Shown here: one piece after another, positions 6,090 to 59,718 of the stretch
Layout: every line of letters starts with the position of its first letter
How positions within the stretch are numbered: the stretch's first letter is position 1
From: Rickettsiales bacterium
Lineage (GTDB): Bacteria > Pseudomonadota > Alphaproteobacteria > UBA8366
Length of the DNA stretch: 64,000 nt
Direction: 5' to 3'
Assembly (NCBI GenBank): GCA_038131165.1
Contig: JAYPOZ010000011.1
Coordinates: 4,121-68,120 of the forward strand
The notes under the pieces: generated by a model
Databases searched by the model: none
The model's input: the letters and a program-made list of their open reading frames with translations, nothing else
What the model was told of the DNA's origin: nothing
Translations under genes and position numbers: made by a program

Positions 6090-6300
6090 GATCTTCTCCC
6101 CGGTAATGATTTCGAGAGCGGGCAGATTGCCGCCCGCCGATTGTTCCCAGCAGTGATCTAGTCGGGTTTCGCCCGGTTTCACCAACCGTCGCCCGTTTTG
6201 GAAACTGCCGCCCGATGGAATAGAGGGCGCCCGCGACCTAACTATCATGATACCCGGCGGAATTGCGCCCGGGCGGCTGGACAGGGAAGGCTTGAGACGG

Positions 6301-7083
6301 ATGGATCGAATTGACGTGGCGGGGATCGGACTCGACCTTGAAATTACCGGAGGGGGTGCGCCGTTGCTCTATCTCCACCCGGAGCATTACGCGCATTTGC
6401 ACGACCCATTTGTCGCGAAATTGGCGGAACGGTGGAAGGTCTACGCGCCGCGCCATCCGGGCTTCGACGGACGTCAGCCGCCGCGCGATTTCAGGCGGGT
6501 CGACGATCTGGCGTATCTCTATCTCGACCTGCTCGATCAGCTGGACCTGGACGATGTCACCGTTCTCGGGGCGTCGTTCGGCGGCTGGATCGGATTGGAG
6601 ATGGCGGTGCGGAACGACCGGCGGCTGCGCGCGCTGGGGCTGATCGCGCCGCTCGGCGCGAAATTGGGGGCGCGCGACGCGCGTGACTTCGCCGACCTCT
6701 TCGCAATGCCGGATGCCGAGGCTGCCCGCTGCCTGTTCGCGGGGGCGCCGCCCGACCTTGGCGCTTTCAGCGCCGATCAACTGACGAGCGTGGCCGTCGA
6801 CCGGCAAACCGTCTCGTATTACGCCTGGAAGCCTTACATGCACAATCCGGCGCTCGCGCGGTGGCTGCACCGCGTCAAGGTGCCGACACACCTGATCTGG
6901 GGGGAGGGCGACGGATTTGTCCCTCCCGACTACGGCAAGAGATTGGCGGAGCGGATACCGCTGGCGCGGATGGATATTCTCCCCGGCGCCGGTCACTACC
7001 CGCAGATCGAACGCCTGGATGAAACCATGGCCACGCTCGCCGCCGGCCCGTGTGCGGCCGGTGCCGCGAAAGCAGGAGGTTAG
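6301..7083 (+). CDS. alpha/beta hydrolase
   Basis: ORF 6247..7083, with a likely start at ATG 6301. Contains the nucleophile elbow LGASFGG and a C-terminal GAGHYPQ histidine motif. Divergent from the dehydrogenase at 6089. Confidence 0.7.
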   Translation: MDRIDVAGIGLDLEITGGGAPLLYLHPEHYAHLHDPFVAKLAERWKVYAPRHPGFDGRQPPRDFRRVDDLAYLYLDLLDQLDLDDVTVLGASFGGWIGLEMAVRNDRRLRALGLIAPLGAKLGARDARDFADLFAMPDAEAARCLFAGAPPDLGAFSADQLTSVAVDRQTVSYYAWKPYMHNPALARWLHRVKVPTHLIWGEGDGFVPPDYGKRLAERIPLARMDILPGAGHYPQIERLDETMATLAAGPCAAGAAKAGG

Positions 7084-7087
7084 TGCG

Positions 7088-8242
7088 ATGAAAGTTTGGC
7101 ATTTTAGCGAGATGGCCTACCACCCGGGTTGGGAAGAGCTGGGCGATTCGCTCCGCAACGTCATTCCGAGCCGGGTCTACGATCCGAAGCTCGGGGCCGA
7201 TCTCTATCACCGCTATCTCGACGAATGGGCCCTCTGTGACGAGTTGGGCATCAACATCATGGTGAACGAGCACCATGCGACGGCGACCTGCACGACTTCG
7301 GTCTGCACGATTCCCCTGGCGATCCTCGCGCGCGAGACCAAGAAGGTCCGTTTGCTGTGCCTTGGCATGCCGATCGCCAATCGAATGGACGCCGTTCGGA
7401 TCGCGGAAGAATATTCGATGCTGGATGTCATTTCCCGCGGTCGTCTGGAAATGGGTTTCGTGAAAGGCTCGCCCTTCGAGGTGACGCCGGCGAACAGCAA
7501 CCCGGCGACCCTGATGGAACGTTTCTGGGAAGCACACGACCTCATTCTCAAGGCCATGACGACCCAGGATGGGCCGTTCAATTGGGAAGGCGATCATTTT
7601 CAGTACCGCCAGGTGAATGTCTGGCCGCGGCCGTATCAGGAGCCGCATCCGCCGGTTTGGATGACCGTGGGCAGTCCCGGCTCGGCCAAAATGGTGGGCG
7701 AGAAGGGTTACGTGGTCGCCTCGTTGAATACGGGATATGCGGCCACGCCGACGATTTACGACACCTACCGGAAGGCCGCCGAGGCGGCGGGCCATTCGGT
7801 CTCGGCCGACCGCTTCGCCTATCTTGCCATCGTCGGCGTCGGCGAGACGGAGGAAGAAGGCCACCGCCGCGCCGATCAGATTCTCGACTACAGCCGCACC
7901 ACTCCGCGAGTGGCCCGCCAGTTCTGGTTCCCTCCCGGATATGCGCCGGCCGAAGTGACCGGGCAGATGCTGAACAATACCGCGCCCCGGACGATCACGC
8001 TTCGGGACGGCGGGAAGGCCGTCATGCAGACCGGCAGCGTCGACGAGTATATCGACGCCGGCATCGCTTTCGCCGGCACCCCGGATACGGTCTACGCGCA
8101 AATCAAGGAGTTCAACGACCATGTGGGCGGCTTGGGGCATCTGCTGATGATGGGCCAGGGCGGGCACCTGAGCCACGACGATACGGTCGACAATCTGACG
8201 CTGTTCAGCAAAGAGGTGCTGCCGAGGTTACAGGACCTCTGA
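7088..8242 (+). CDS. luciferase-like (LLM class) flavin-dependent oxidoreductase
   Basis: ORF 6917..8242 trimmed to ATG 7088 behind the AGGAGG RBS. Motifs MKVWHFSEMAY, MVNEHH and PHPPVWMTVGS. Starts 4 nt after the hydrolase stop. Confidence 0.8.
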   Translation: MKVWHFSEMAYHPGWEELGDSLRNVIPSRVYDPKLGADLYHRYLDEWALCDELGINIMVNEHHATATCTTSVCTIPLAILARETKKVRLLCLGMPIANRMDAVRIAEEYSMLDVISRGRLEMGFVKGSPFEVTPANSNPATLMERFWEAHDLILKAMTTQDGPFNWEGDHFQYRQVNVWPRPYQEPHPPVWMTVGSPGSAKMVGEKGYVVASLNTGYAATPTIYDTYRKAAEAAGHSVSADRFAYLAIVGVGETEEEGHRRADQILDYSRTTPRVARQFWFPPGYAPAEVTGQMLNNTAPRTITLRDGGKAVMQTGSVDEYIDAGIAFAGTPDTVYAQIKEFNDHVGGLGHLLMMGQGGHLSHDDTVDNLTLFSKEVLPRLQDL

Positions 8243-37730: not shown

Positions 37731-37846
37731 CCCTCACCCTCCCACGATGCGGGCCCCTCCCTCTCCCGCGGGCGGGAGAGGGTAGAGACCGGCGACACCC
37801 AACGCGCCCCCTCTCCCGCCGGCGGGAGAGGGACCGGGGTGAGGGT
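37731..37846. repeat. REP-like composite palindrome (two GC hairpins inside an outer inverted repeat)
   Basis: CCCTCTCCCGCGGGCGGGAGAGGG (37759-37782) and CCCCCTCTCCCGCCGGCGGGAGAGGG (37807-37832). They are flanked by CCCTCACCC (37731) and GGGGTGAGGG (37837). Confidence 0.75.
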
Positions 37847-37881
37847 TGGGGCCGAGTTTGAGCTTGGAGGAGACTGACAAC

Positions 37882-39547
37882 ATGCCTTTACGCAATACCG
37901 AACTGCCGCTCGACGTGGTCTGGCCGCGCCTGATCGCGATCGCCGACGAGATGGCGACGACGATGTTCCGCACCGCCTTCAGCCACGACGTGGTCGAGGT
38001 GCACGACATGTCGACGGGCCTGCTCGACGACCGCGGCCATCTGATGGCGCAGACCTGGCTCGGCGCCACCGGCCATACCGGCTGCATGCCCGCCTTCGGC
38101 GCCAATCTCGTCGAGGCCTTCCCGCCGGAGACGGTGGTGCCGGGCGACGTTTTCATCTGCAACGATCCCTGGCTCTGCAACGGCCAGACGGCGGACGTCT
38201 TCATCACCACGCCGGCGTTTCACAAGGGCCGCCTGATCGGTTTTGCCGTCAATACGATCCACCATGTGGACATCGGCGGGCGCAAGGGCTCGGGCCTTTC
38301 CGAGGAGGTTTTCGAGGAGGGCCTGATCATCCCGATGCTGCGCCTCTACAAGGGCGGCGAGCCGAACGAGGAGCTGTTCGGCCTGATCCGCCGCAACGTG
38401 CGCTATTCGGAGAAGATGATCGGCGACCTCCGCGCCCAGGTGGCGACCGGCTGGGCCGGCTGCCGCGAGCTGGAGCGGCTCTGCGCCGAGTTCGGATTCG
38501 GCGATCTGCGGGAAGTCTCCGACGAGATCACGGGCCGCACGGAAGCGCATCCGCGCCGGTCTCAGCGAATTGCCGGACGGCGAATGGCGCGAAGAGATGA
38601 TGATGGACATCGACGGCATCGACGAGCCGCAACCCCTCGTCGTCAGCGTCAAGATCGAGGGCGATCAGATCTACGTCGATTTTACCGGCACCGCGCCGCA
38701 GGTGCGCCGCCCGGTCAATTGCCCGATCAATTTCTCGCGCGCCTATGTGGCGGTGCCGGTCAAGATGATCTGCGATCCCACATTGCCGAACAATCAGGGC
38801 ACCTACCGGCCGATCACGCTCACGGCGCCCGAAGGCAGCCTGCTCAATCCCACATATCCGGCGGCGTGTTTCTGGCGCCTCAGCGCCGGGATGCTGGTGG
38901 CGGAGCTGATGTTCAAGATTTTCGCGCGGATCGTGCCCGACCGGGTGCCGGCGGAATCGGGCTCGCTGCCGACCTGGCAGTTCTACGTCACCGGCAACAA
39001 GCCGGACGGCGAGGCCTATGCCCTGCACCAGCATTCCTTCGGCGGCATGGGCGGGCGGCCCGGCCGCGACGGGCTTTCCGCCGTCAGCTTCCCCTACAAC
39101 GTGCGCGACGTCTCCATCGAATGGTCGGAGCACGAGACGCCGATACTCTACCATGCCCGCGAGCTGATTGCGGATTCGGGCGGGCCGGGGACCTCGCGCG
39201 GCGGCCTGGGCCAGGAATTGATTTTCGAGGCCTACGCGCCCGGCACCGCGCCGAAGCAGCCGCTGGTCTTCTCCGGCGCCGCCGGGCGCATGCGCTTCCC
39301 GCCCCAGGGGCTTGGCGGCGGCAAGCCGGGCGCGCTCGCGCGGATCGCCGTCGACGACAAACCGATCGCCCCCTCCAGCTCGCCCGAATTCCCCTTCAAG
39401 ATCGGCGAGGTCGTGCACCTGCAATTGCCCGGCGGCGGCGGCCACGGCGACCCGGCCGGACGCGCCGCAGACGACATCGCCCGCGACGTGAAGGCGGGCT
39501 ATATCTCGGCCGAAGGCGCGAAGCGGGATTACGGGTACGAGGGGTAG
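37882..39547 (+). pseudogene. hyuB: hydantoinase B/oxoprolinase-family subunit (second copy), frameshifted near 38530-38550
   Basis: The frame of ORF 37846..39651 is HyuB-like from ATG 37882 (GGAGGAGA RBS) to ...EVSDEITGRTEA, then turns Arg-rich. HyuB similarity resumes in the next frame as RKRIRAGLSELPDGEWREEMMMDIDG (ORF 38570..39547) and runs to GGGGHGDPAGR. Confidence 0.8.
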
Positions 39548-54880: not shown

Positions 54881-55972
<1,092 letters not shown>

Positions 55973-56042
55973 CGGCTTGCGGCGCGCTCTCGGGGCGCTA
56001 GATTTGAAGACTGTGAGACAACCAACCAGAAAAGAGGAAACG

Positions 56043-56489
56043 ATGGCCTTACCGGAAATCGGCAGTGTGCCGCCGGCCTTCACGTTGCCTAATCAAGACG
56101 GGCAGAACGTGAGTCTGTCGGACCATGCCGGCAAACACGTCGTGCTGTGGTTCTATCCACGCGCTTTCGGCAACAATTGAACCAAGCAAGCCCACGGGTT
56201 CCGTGCTAGAGCCCAGGAATTTGCCGAGAAGAACGCCGTTGTTCTGGGGATTACCTTCAGCCCGACGGAGGATTTGAAGAAATGGCGCGACGAGGTCGGA
56301 TTGCCGAGCGAATTGCTTTGCGACACCGATAAGTCCGTTGCCATGGCCTACGGTGCTGCCGAAAACGCTGATCAGGAACGCCCGAAACGCATGGGAATCC
56401 ACATCGGCCCCGACGGCAAGGTCACGAAGGCCTACGAGGTCGAGGATGCGGAGGGGCACGCGGTTGCCGCGCTGAACGACCTGGCCTGA
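56043..56489 (+). CDS. Bcp-type peroxiredoxin with in-frame TGA at the peroxidatic Cys position (candidate selenoprotein; otherwise a nonsense pseudogene)
   Basis: ORFs 55977..56180 and 56274..56489 share one frame and are separated only by TGA at 56178-56180. The joined product reads MALPEIGSVPPAFTLPNQDGQNVSLSDHAGKHVVLWFYPRAFGNN-U-TKQAHGFRARAQEFAEKNAVVLGITFSPTEDLKKW... AGAGGAAA RBS lies before ATG 56043. Confidence 0.6.
56187..56209 (+). promoter_or_regulatory. SECIS-like hairpin downstream of the in-frame TGA
   Basis: CACGG (56193-56197), GTT, CCGTG (56201-56205), starting 12 nt after the TGA. The apical loop starts with G. A lower stem is possible (G56190-C56206, A56189-U56207) with a CC bulge. 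Confidence 0.5.
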
Positions 56490-56612: not shown

Positions 56613-58130
56613 ATGGACATTCAGACATGTGACGGTGGCGATATCGCGTTTGGCGGTATCGCCGCCGCAATTCGAAACCACGCGCGTTCTCGGTCGCTCG
56701 AGACGGCGCTTGTCTTCGATCGTGAGGAGATGTCCTGGGAGGCGCTGGCCATTGCGGTCGAAAGGCTCGGGGATCGTTTTGCGTCGATCGACGCGGGCGG
56801 TAAAATCGCGCTGTCCCTGCCGAATTCACAGGCCCTCGTATTGTTGATCCTGGGTGCCATCCGAGCGTCGAGGCAGGTTCAGGTCCTGGATCCGGATTGG
56901 CCGCCGGACATTCGGGAACCGGTTCTCCAAACGTTGAAGCCGAAGTCGATCGTCGCCAATGTCGGTATCCAGGGGGGCGAATGCATCGACCCCTATGGCG
57001 CAATCGACGAAATTCTGACGGGTTTGGGGTGCGACGGACGGGCAGCATTCGAAGCGTTGCCGCCCGGCGATCCGAGCCGGATTTTCTATACCGGGTTTAC
57101 ATCGGGTTCTACCGGGACGCCGAAAGGTTTCCAGCGGAGCGAACAATCTTGGATCGACAGCTTTCGTGGCGACAATGTCGAATTTTCCTTCACGCCCGAT
57201 GATGTCTTCGTCGCTTTGGGGAGCTTGGCGCACTCGTTGTTTCTGTATGCGGTCTTGCGGGGACTTTATGCCGGTGGAACGACAGTGTTTTTCCGTCAAT
57301 TCCGTCCTGACAGAATTCTCCGACGTCTTGCCGAACGACGGGGCAGCGTCGTCTACGGTGTTCCCACCCAATACGATGCCATGGCGTCGGTCGCGGAGGC
57401 CTCCGGCGCGCGCTGTCCCACGGTACGCATCGTGCTTTCTTCGGGCGCAAAACTACCGGGCGCATTGAAGCAAAGATTGCGAAAGGTGTTTCCGCAGGCG
57501 GAGATTTGCGAGTTTTACGGCACATCCGAACAGAGTTACGTGACGGTTGCGCGCGACGGCGAAACGCCTCTCGGCTCCGTAGGACGGGCCTTTCCGGGTG
57601 TGGATATCTCAATCCGAGACACCTCCGGTCACGCCCAGCCGACGGGCGGGACGGGACACGTCTTCGCCTCGAGCGCGCTCTTGTTTCGAGACTACGAACT
57701 CGCGGTCAACCCAGCCCTGGTACGGGTCGGCGAGGCGATCAGCGTCGGTGATGTCGGGTACCTCGACAGCAAGGGGTATCTCTATCTCGTCGGCCGGTCC
57801 GACCGGATGATTATCTCTTCGGGAAAGAACATCTATCCGGAGGAGGTCGAGAATGTGCTGATCGGCCATCCTTCGATAGCGGCCGCAGCGGTCATCGGTA
57901 TCTCCGATCCGAGAAGGGGAAGCCGGTTGCTGGCGGTCCTGCGGGTAACAGAGGCTCCGCCCGACCTGCGGCGCGACCTGATTTCTTGGTGCCGCGAGAG
58001 ACTTCCGCTCTACAAGGTGCCGATGGTGTACGTGGAGTGTTCGGATTGGCCCCTGACAGCGTCGCATAAGACGAACCTGCCAGTGCTCCGTTCGTTGGTG
58101 AAGGCCGGCAAGTTGCCGGAAATATCGTGA
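56613..58130 (+). CDS. AMP-dependent synthetase/ligase (acyl-CoA ligase family)
   Basis: 505-aa ORF. Motifs YTGFTSGSTGTPKG, EFYGTSE, GDVGYLDSKGYLYLVGRSDRMIISSGKNIYPEEVE. Confidence 0.85.
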   Translation: MDIQTCDGGDIAFGGIAAAIRNHARSRSLETALVFDREEMSWEALAIAVERLGDRFASIDAGGKIALSLPNSQALVLLILGAIRASRQVQVLDPDWPPDIREPVLQTLKPKSIVANVGIQGGECIDPYGAIDEILTGLGCDGRAAFEALPPGDPSRIFYTGFTSGSTGTPKGFQRSEQSWIDSFRGDNVEFSFTPDDVFVALGSLAHSLFLYAVLRGLYAGGTTVFFRQFRPDRILRRLAERRGSVVYGVPTQYDAMASVAEASGARCPTVRIVLSSGAKLPGALKQRLRKVFPQAEICEFYGTSEQSYVTVARDGETPLGSVGRAFPGVDISIRDTSGHAQPTGGTGHVFASSALLFRDYELAVNPALVRVGEAISVGDVGYLDSKGYLYLVGRSDRMIISSGKNIYPEEVENVLIGHPSIAAAAVIGISDPRRGSRLLAVLRVTEAPPDLRRDLISWCRERLPLYKVPMVYVECSDWPLTASHKTNLPVLRSLVKAGKLPEIS

Positions 58131-59269
58131 TGAAGGCCTCCATTGCCGCAGGGCGCCGGACGCCGGTGGCGGTACGCGGCGGAAAATTCGCCGAAGCGGA
58201 AATCGCCGATTTGGCGGGGCCGGTGATGGCGCAATCCCTGAGAGATGCGGGCATTCAACCTGACAGGGTCGATGCGGTCATTCTGGGCAATGCCCTCTAT
58301 GGCGGCGGCAATCCCGCACGGGTCGCTGCCCTGGCGGCGGGTCTGCCGGAATCCGTAGCGGCGATGACGGTCGACACCCAGTGTTGCAGCGGCCTCGATG
58401 CGATCGCGCTCGCGCGCTCGCAAATACTGTCGGGGCAGGCGGAGGTCGTGATCGCCGGCGGTGTCGAAAGTTACAGCCGTGCGCCGATACGCCAACGCCG
58501 CCCGAGATCGCCGCTGGAGCCGCCGCAGTCCTATGAGAGACCGCCCTTTACGCCGTGGCCGGAACGCGATCCCGACATGCTTGAAGCGGCAGCCGCATTG
58601 GCGTTGCGGCTCAAGGTCAGCCGCGAGCGGCAGGCGGAATATGCCGTGTTCAGTCATCGCCGGGCCCGCGACGATCTCTTCGGTCCGGACGAGATCGTCG
58701 CGATTGGCGACGTGGCGCGGGATGAATTTACGCGACATCTCACGCCGGCCCTGTGCGCGCGATTGAATGTCTTGGCGGGAGAGGAGACATGCGGCGTAAC
58801 GGCCGCGACGACGGCCGTCGAAGCGGATGCGGCCGCGGTCGTGGTGGTCGTCGCCGATGGCGTTCTGAGAACGCTGGCGGTGACGGGAAGAGAGGTCGGC
58901 ATTCTCGCGGCGGACGCGCGCGGAGGTGATCCGGAATGCCCGGCGCTGGCGCCGATTGCCGCCGCGAACGCTGCGCTCTCGCGCGCCGGATTGCGGGCGC
59001 GGGATATCGATGTCGCGGAGATCATGGAGGCCTTCGCCGTGCAGGCCATGGCGTGTATCGAGGGGATCGGATTGGACTTTGAACGCGTCAACCGCCGCGG
59101 CGGCGCCTTGGCGAGAGGGCACCCGATCGGCGCGTCGGGAGCGATTCTGGCGGTTCGCTTGTTCCACGATCTGCGCCGCGGGAATTCCGACCGGTATGGT
59201 CTCGCGGCGATTGCGGCCGCGGGCGGTCTCGGGAGCGCGTTGGTTTTGGCGGCGGGAGACAGGACTTGA
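58130..59269 (+). CDS. thiolase-family protein (non-canonical active site)
   Basis: ORF 58127..59269, with ATG 58130 overlapping the ligase TGA. Nucleophile context VDTQCCSGLDAI. Motif GHPIGASGA is present. The C-terminus reads AAIAAAGGLGSA. Confidence 0.8.
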   Translation: MKASIAAGRRTPVAVRGGKFAEAEIADLAGPVMAQSLRDAGIQPDRVDAVILGNALYGGGNPARVAALAAGLPESVAAMTVDTQCCSGLDAIALARSQILSGQAEVVIAGGVESYSRAPIRQRRPRSPLEPPQSYERPPFTPWPERDPDMLEAAAALALRLKVSRERQAEYAVFSHRRARDDLFGPDEIVAIGDVARDEFTRHLTPALCARLNVLAGEETCGVTAATTAVEADAAAVVVVVADGVLRTLAVTGREVGILAADARGGDPECPALAPIAAANAALSRAGLRARDIDVAEIMEAFAVQAMACIEGIGLDFERVNRRGGALARGHPIGASGAILAVRLFHDLRRGNSDRYGLAAIAAAGGLGSALVLAAGDRT

Positions 59270-59718
59270 TCCGCGTCCCCACACCGGCCGATTGCGCCGC
59301 TCATCTCGGTGAGACCATCGTTGGCGCCGAGGCGGTAACAATCTCGGGTCGTGAAATCGATGCGTTCACGAAAATTTCCGGCGACCGCCAATGGATACAT
59401 GGCCCGGGCGCCGAGCGGCGGATCGTGCCCGGAAATTTTCTGATCGCCTTGCTTCCGCGCATGATACAGAGCTGTCTCGTCGCGGAGACTTTCACGCGGT
59501 GCCTGACGGTAAAATACGCGGCCATACGCTTTCGCCATCCGGTGAGCGAAGGCGCTGCGATCGGTGTTTCGATACGGATTATAGAGGTTCGCAATCGGGC
59601 GGCGGGCACGTTCGTGACCCTGGATGTCCGCTTGACGGACCAGGCGAGCGGAAACGAATGCCTGAGTGCCACGGTCACCGACTATTATGAAACAGAGGCC
59701 GCGCCGGATGCGGGTTAG
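59266..59718 (+). CDS. MaoC-like (hotdog-fold) dehydratase domain protein
   Basis: 150-aa ORF with a TTG start overlapping the thiolase TGA. Motifs FTKISGDRQWIH and VPGNFLIALLP are typical of MaoC. Confidence 0.65.
   Translation: MIRVPTPADCAAHLGETIVGAEAVTISGREIDAFTKISGDRQWIHGPGAERRIVPGNFLIALLPRMIQSCLVAETFTRCLTVKYAAIRFRHPVSEGAAIGVSIRIIEVRNRAAGTFVTLDVRLTDQASGNECLSATVTDYYETEAAPDAG

Follow-up and report, generated by a model that had tools for sequence, protein, structure and literature searches.

The question raised by this locus is whether the TGA triplet that interrupts a peroxiredoxin gene in the 64-kb window (the whole stretch of DNA analysed) marks a broken gene or is instead decoded as selenocysteine (Sec). 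The second answer had been put forward in an earlier note made from the letters alone, which described a Bcp-type peroxiredoxin with Sec in place of cysteine. That reading is upheld here, at a probability of about 0.88: the product is most probably a Bcp/PrxQ-type peroxidase that depends on thiols, with a peroxidatic Sec that would be inserted at the internal UGA. The evidence is comparative, and consists of the recurrence of the TGA in related genes, the coding-type divergence on both sides of it, and a covarying hairpin present in the TGA forms only. The features concerned are collected in the Table.

Table. Positions of the peroxiredoxin gene and of its associated elements in the window
Feature	Position	Strand	Basis and remarks
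Shine-Dalgarno-like GAGGA	56034..56038	+	read from sequence; 4 nt upstream of ATG
Peroxiredoxin CDS, Bcp/PrxQ-type	56043..56489	+	translation, Pfam, PDB alignments; 148 residues, predicted Sec at residue 46
Active-site motif P39-R-A-F-G43-N-N-U46	56157..56180	+	translation, PDB alignment; canonical motif is PxxxTxxC
In-frame UGA, putative Sec codon (residue 46, peroxidatic)	56178..56180	+	TGA in 64/80 typed copies
Alternative hairpin CACGG-GUU-CCGUG	56193..56205	+	overlaps the predicted SECIS, mutually exclusive with it; judged not functional
Bacterial SECIS hairpin (predicted)	56196..56214	+	RNAalifold consensus, covariation, frozen synonymous sites
Arg116 codon, conserved peroxiredoxin active-site Arg	56388..56390	+	Arg in 79/80 aligned homologues

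Translation gives a single frame of 148 codons plus stop, in which the only internal stop is the TGA in question; the terminal stop of the gene is also TGA (56487-56489). This agrees with the earlier note, which had placed the open reading frames beginning at 55977 and 56274 in one frame with the TGA as their sole interruption. The orthologues start with the same M(A/T/P)LP as the window protein. With U replaced by C, the protein matches the Pfam domain AhpC-TSA (PF00578) over residues 7-129 (6.8e-29; 100.8 bits against a cut-off of 26), and Redoxin is a further Pfam match when the TGA is read as Cys. The best PDB matches are Bcp/PrxQ chains, and the alignment to archaeal and bacterial structures (2ywn, 2cx3) runs from end to end. 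The column of the TGA is that of the peroxidatic Cys of 2ywn and 2cx3, where it had been placed by eye, and the later conserved Arg that had also been pointed out is R116. None of the NCBIfam peroxiredoxin equivalog cut-offs is reached by the window protein; its scores, set against those cut-offs, are 81.9/140 bits for Bcp (NF006960), 73.6/260 for PrxQ (NF053650) and 38.4/270 for PrxU (NF040737).

Scanning one genome per species gave 80 loci, mostly from metagenome-assembled genomes of marine Alphaproteobacteria/Rhodospirillaceae, together with some from Gammaproteobacteria, Gemmatimonadota and Latescibacterota. Whether such orthologues carry Cys or TGA at codon 46 had been proposed as one of the checks. 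Among 80 typed homologous copies from different genomes the codon is TGA in 64 and Cys (TGC/TGT) in 16, and the hairpin described below is conserved in the TGA forms; beyond these typed copies, TGA is also found in loci L034 and L052. Sorted by the residues at positions 43 and 46 the copies comprise 47 GxxU, 17 TxxU, 10 TxxC, 5 GxxC and 1 SxxC. The TGA form also recurs within single genomes, which lends some indirect support to Sec decoding. Paralogues with the same hairpin are paired in the same assembly in three cases (L008/L060, L043/L065 and L063/L071), and tandem pairs, each gene with a SECIS hairpin of its own, are seen in L029 at 440-1500 (TxxU then GxxU) and in L062 at 6094-7150 (two of TxxU type).

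The region downstream of the TGA diverges as coding sequence does. In the 47 GxxU genes, pairs differ on average by 0.25/0.16/0.55 at codon positions 1/2/3 before the TGA and by 0.30/0.21/0.58 after it; therefore the downstream region is translated in frame and under purifying selection. The length of the protein is likewise held, at 148 aa in 37 of the 47. In a search of 5.8 billion proteins, the close relatives (65-89% identity) all proved to be C-terminal pieces of 81-94 aa, the pattern left when gene callers stop at a conserved TGA; the closest database entries are thus split gene calls, which the earlier note had described as routine for such selenoproteins. The full-length relatives (59-68% identity) have Cys at this position, in FFPRAYGxxCT. 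One spurious full-length variant with Trp (P0001; L081 150-599, on a 751-nt Tara Oceans contig) is also present in the protein database, from a public gene call; its DNA has TGA, and it was apparently translated with genetic code 4.

Evidence for a SECIS element came from an alignment of the 57 nt from the TGA onward in 56 TGA-bearing genes, which contain 53 distinct sequences. RNAalifold finds one helix, between columns 19-24 and 32-37. In the window this is composed of a 5' arm GGGUUC (56196-56201), a 7-nt loop CGUGCUA (56202-56208) and a 3' arm GAGCCC (56209-56214); it begins 15 nt after the UGA and its loop begins 21 nt after the UGA. Across the 53 distinct sequences the helix is 99.4% paired. 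Double-sided changes number 6, compared with 2.2 +/- 1.1 in shuffled alignments (none of 500 shuffles reaches 6), and they are confined to one of the six pairs; the pair of columns 21-35 is G-C in 33 sequences, G-U in 13 and A-U in 6. Registers slid along the alignment all score worse. In L066 (GGAUUCC-GGGAC-GGAAUCC) and L074 (GGCUUG-CGUGAU-CAAGCC) the hairpin is kept in place while its sequence or register differs. The consensus structure from RNAalifold contains no detectable conserved bulge or lower stem.

The codons that make up the hairpin are constrained at their synonymous sites. In the TGA forms codons +6 (GGG), +7 (TTC) and +8 (CGT) are each identical in 47/47 genes, +11 (ACC) is identical in 24/24, and codon +10 is only ever CGA or AGA; the codons flanking the hairpin show 1-1.9 bits of synonymous entropy, and third-position divergence falls to 0.13 across it. 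Conservation of the amino acids does not account for so strict a choice of codons in the TGA forms. Furthermore, the five Cys-form genes that carry Gly43 use CGC, and the helix cannot form there. G52 and R56 vary outside the Sec forms but never within them, a pattern that is the usual imprint of an in-frame SECIS upon the protein.

Published criteria for the bacterial SECIS (bSECIS) specify a loop of 3-9 nt, a stem of 4-16 bp, a G in the first two loop positions, a distance of 16-37 nt from the UGA and a minimum free energy (MFE) of at most -7.5 kcal/mol (PMC13188914). The hairpin lies within every one of these limits: its stem has 6 bp and its loop 7 nt, of which the second is G and the third U, the spacing is 21 nt, and the MFE, taken over the 45 nt from the UGA onward, is -9.6 kcal/mol. 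The hairpin itself has -8.6 kcal/mol in context, with pair probabilities above 0.95. Folding of the single sequence of 60 nt after the UGA is no better than that of shuffles (z = -0.53), so that it is comparison which supports the hairpin. Searches against Rfam yielded no match, either at gathering thresholds across the window or at E <= 10 within 56140-56280. The idea that the hairpin is a general motif was rejected, because all perfect matches in the window and the loci belong to peroxiredoxin paralogues, 21 nt after the TGA in each case. A family-specific consensus can be written as UGA-N15-GGRUUC-CGUGNYN-GARYCC.

The earlier note had also predicted a SECIS directly 3' of the UGA. A conserved hairpin is indeed found there, but the one that had been drawn, CACGG-GUU-CCGUG, is the wrong one: it is present in the sequence, yet it is not conserved and its pairing probability in the ensemble is about 0. 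The proposal that this is nevertheless the functional SECIS of a true selenoprotein, or that the RNA switches dynamically between the two hairpins, deserves consideration, as the drawn hairpin formally fits the rules for loop, G and spacing (a 3-nt loop starting GU, 17 nt from the UGA) and no orthologue departs from its 3' arm CCGUG. Its energy is however -5.3 kcal/mol, compared with -8.6 for GGGUUC/GAGCCC, and the mean energies are -2.3 and -7.5 kcal/mol respectively. Across the orthologues only 75.8% of its cells are paired, the outer pair being broken in 45/53 and the third pair in 15/53, and there is no covariation. Moreover, it leaves the constraint on columns 32-37 (CGA/AGA, NNC) unexplained, and it is destroyed in L066 and L074, where the other hairpin persists. 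The invariance of CGUG can equally be explained by contact of SelB with loop bases, and these nucleotides are better read as such than as part of a CACGG/CCGUG stem. A functional role for the drawn hairpin, alone or in a switch, is thus very unlikely.

The remaining alternatives to Sec insertion concern the decoding of the UGA, and both draw in part on the searches for Sec machinery. Neither the genes selA, selB and selD nor tRNA-Sec turned up in the 64-kb window or in the roughly 800 kb that flank the orthologues. ARAGORN detected no tRNA-Sec in the window or the 80 loci, and no tRNA of any kind was found in the window; Pfam scans of 55 window ORFs revealed no SelA, SelB or SelD domains, and motif scans across the loci no signatures of SelD, SelA or SelB. 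On this ground, and given that the window holds at least one apparently broken gene (the hyuB frameshift described below), it might be argued that a Cys codon mutated to TGA in the source lineage and that the gene is dead. The presence of the same TGA in the majority of gene copies, from different species and several phyla, and the equal purifying selection on its two sides effectively refute a nonsense pseudogene, against which the conserved length of 148 aa and the dedicated hairpin of the TGA forms also argue. Alternatively, the UGA could be read through independently of Sec decoding, a near-cognate tRNA inserting Trp or Cys, or under an alternative code, with the hairpin slowing the ribosome or blocking release factor 2. 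The negative result of the searches for Sec machinery in the window and orthologue flanks would permit this, and the public gene call of the orthologue P0001 does have Trp; as noted above, that Trp is an artefact of code 4 on a short contig. TGA is an ordinary stop in the source genome, ending the peroxiredoxin gene and many Pfam-confirmed neighbours, and since it terminates most of the neighbouring genes in the window a reassigned genetic code is excluded. The site is, furthermore, that of a redox-active Cys, at which exchange of Sec and Cys is a known pattern (PMC1088965, PMC2398784), and the hairpin fits the SelB-type SECIS model. Readthrough without Sec is accordingly improbable. A scan of the window for a second selenoprotein, by way of genes with in-frame TGA, gave only two cases, both of ordinary adjacent genes.

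If Sec is inserted as in the established bacterial pathway, SelB carrying Sec-tRNA(Sec) would bind the mRNA hairpin at 56196-56214 and deliver Sec when the UGA occupies the ribosomal A site, outcompeting release factor 2; the second UGA, which has no such hairpin, would terminate translation. In the enzyme the selenolate would then attack the peroxide to give a selenenic acid, which a thiol partner would reduce. This last part, the peroxidase chemistry, is the less certain because of the active site. The motif Pxxx(T/S)xxC is kept at Pro39 and at U46, the equivalent of its Cys, but its Thr/Ser position is occupied by Gly43, so that the canonical motif is not reproduced. The substitution had been flagged at the outset as a caveat, and it proves to be a property of the clade, Gly43 occurring in 47/47 GxxU and 5/5 GxxC copies. 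Peroxidase activity is thus less secure than Sec insertion, both for this reason and because no NCBIfam equivalog cut-off is reached.

The +5 resolving-Cys position is occupied by His in the window protein and by Cys in 1/47 GxxU copies; overall the +5 Cys is kept in 1/64 Sec forms compared with 7/10 TxxC forms. Cys93 was considered as a required resolving cysteine and rejected, since position 93 varies among the GxxU copies (C 31, S 6, Q 5, F 3, Y 2). As the +5 Cys is nearly absent from the Sec forms and Cys93 is not invariant, the enzyme is probably of a 1-Sec type with a need for an external thiol.

In a neighbour-joining tree the Sec forms all fall together, GxxU being one clade with TxxU next to it. 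Within GxxU the five GxxC genes (L027, L035, L038, L039 and L050) are nested as one clade, and this monophyly and nesting suggest a single reversion from Sec to Cys within GxxU. The change coincides with loss of the hairpin, with replacement of Phe42 by Tyr and with codon changes (CGT to CGC, among others). Residue 42 is Tyr (PRAYGxxC) in 5/5 Cys loci and in 9/9 database proteins, and Phe in 45/47 Sec forms; the database entries of this Cys-form PRAYGxxC clade are P0002-P0018. The coupling of Phe/Tyr with Sec/Cys was rejected as statistical evidence, because on the tree it amounts to one evolutionary event; it serves as a lead. The active-site Thr/Ser is, to our knowledge, otherwise universal in peroxiredoxins. 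It is conceivable, if rather unlikely, that the PRAFGxxU clade dispensed with it because the selenolate is reactive enough, and that the Tyr hydroxyl of the Cys forms substitutes for that of Thr; were this true, the clade would serve as a natural experiment on the benefit that Sec brings to a peroxidase. Another possibility is that the PRAFGxxU clade has shifted to a redox function other than that of a peroxidase.

Selenoproteins of this general kind are already known. A marine "Prx" family (COG1225/pfam00578, motif TxxU) is described in the Sargasso Sea and GOS selenoproteome papers (Zhang & Gladyshev; PMC1088965, PMC2398784), with 253 members in GOS (PMC2398784). It is like the window protein in fold, Sec position and marine setting; the papers describe a highly conserved PxxxTxxU, whereas the window clade is GxxU, a difference on which the text consulted does not comment. 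The GOS supplement, under "#Peroxiredoxin", contains JCVI_READ_1320741 (...WFYPRAFGNNUTKQINGFRDRAQDF...), which shares 84% identity with the window protein across 94 aa, and a PRAFGGGU read is also among its peroxiredoxins. The window clade was therefore already catalogued as a selenoprotein in the 2008 GOS selenoproteome, and all that is new, to a mild degree, is that the clade as a whole has Gly where the canonical active site has Thr, which poses a small biochemical question.

PrxU of Eubacterium acidaminophilum is a Sec-peroxiredoxin shown as such biochemically (Sohling et al. 2001, as cited in PMC13188914). PrxU (NF040737) has Sec at the peroxidatic position, as in the window protein, but belongs to a different subfamily, with about 233 profile positions and TxxU; the window protein has 148 aa and scores 38.4 bits against 270. 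E. coli Bcp/PrxQ (NF006960; PDB 2ywn, 2cx3, 3drn, 5iph) is of the same domain and length class and shares with the window protein the PxxxxxxC spacing, the conserved Arg and an FRD motif that follows the active site. The window protein differs from it in having Sec for Cys, Gly for Thr and His in place of the +5 resolving Cys.

The bSECIS consensus model is that of Zhang & Gladyshev 2005, as summarised in PMC13188914. The window hairpin resembles fdhF-type and bSECIS elements in being a stem-loop within the coding sequence just 3' of the UGA, with a G then a U near the 5' side of a small apical loop, in its spacing within 16-37 nt, and in the amino acid and codon constraints that it places upon the protein, where G52, F53, R54 and R56 are without variation in the Sec forms alone. 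It differs from the fdhF-type SECIS in that there is no sequence similarity and no Rfam match, and in its 7-nt loop CGUGAUC/CGUGCUA. In fdhF, G23/U24 lie closer to the UGA, by about 3 nt, than the G-U of this loop.

For annotation, the gene should be recorded as one selenoprotein rather than as two fragments; public calls for this clade are nearly all split or mistranslated, and the family SECIS consensus would let annotators rescue such genes in marine metagenome-assembled genomes. Carriage of the gene also makes its source organism, a Rhodospirillaceae-like alphaproteobacterium of marine origin, a probable user of Sec.

The region around the peroxiredoxin gene is catabolic in character, with TauD-type dioxygenases, nitronate monooxygenase, AMP-ligase, thiolase, aldo-keto reductase (AKR) and a metallo-beta-lactamase-fold (MBL) protein, and no functional link of this neighbourhood to selenium is evident. 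The order TauD ... Prx - AMP-ligase - thiolase - AKR - MBL is common to the closest relatives, L001, L002, L003, L032 and L051. The nitronate-monooxygenase gene directly upstream of the peroxiredoxin (54887-55972, +) has no counterpart of at least 60% coverage in the syntenic loci L001, L002, L003, L019 and L032, and may be a lineage-specific insertion.

Some further observations concern other parts of the window. ORFs 58010-59365 (-) and 58070-59269 (+) overlap almost fully; Pfam support (thiolase) exists for the plus strand only, and the 443-aa minus-strand ORF was rejected as a gene, being a shadow ORF of high-GC DNA. The hydantoinase-B/oxoprolinase gene (hyuB; 37846-39547, +) is split by a frameshift near 38520-38570, with the N-terminal ~225 aa in one frame and PF02538 positions 228-519 in another, as the result of a sequencing error or else because the gene is a pseudogene. 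Between hyuA and hyuB, at 37735-37845, lie two GC-rich palindromic units, ccctctcccgc(g/c)ggcgggagaggg, which look like REP-type repeats.
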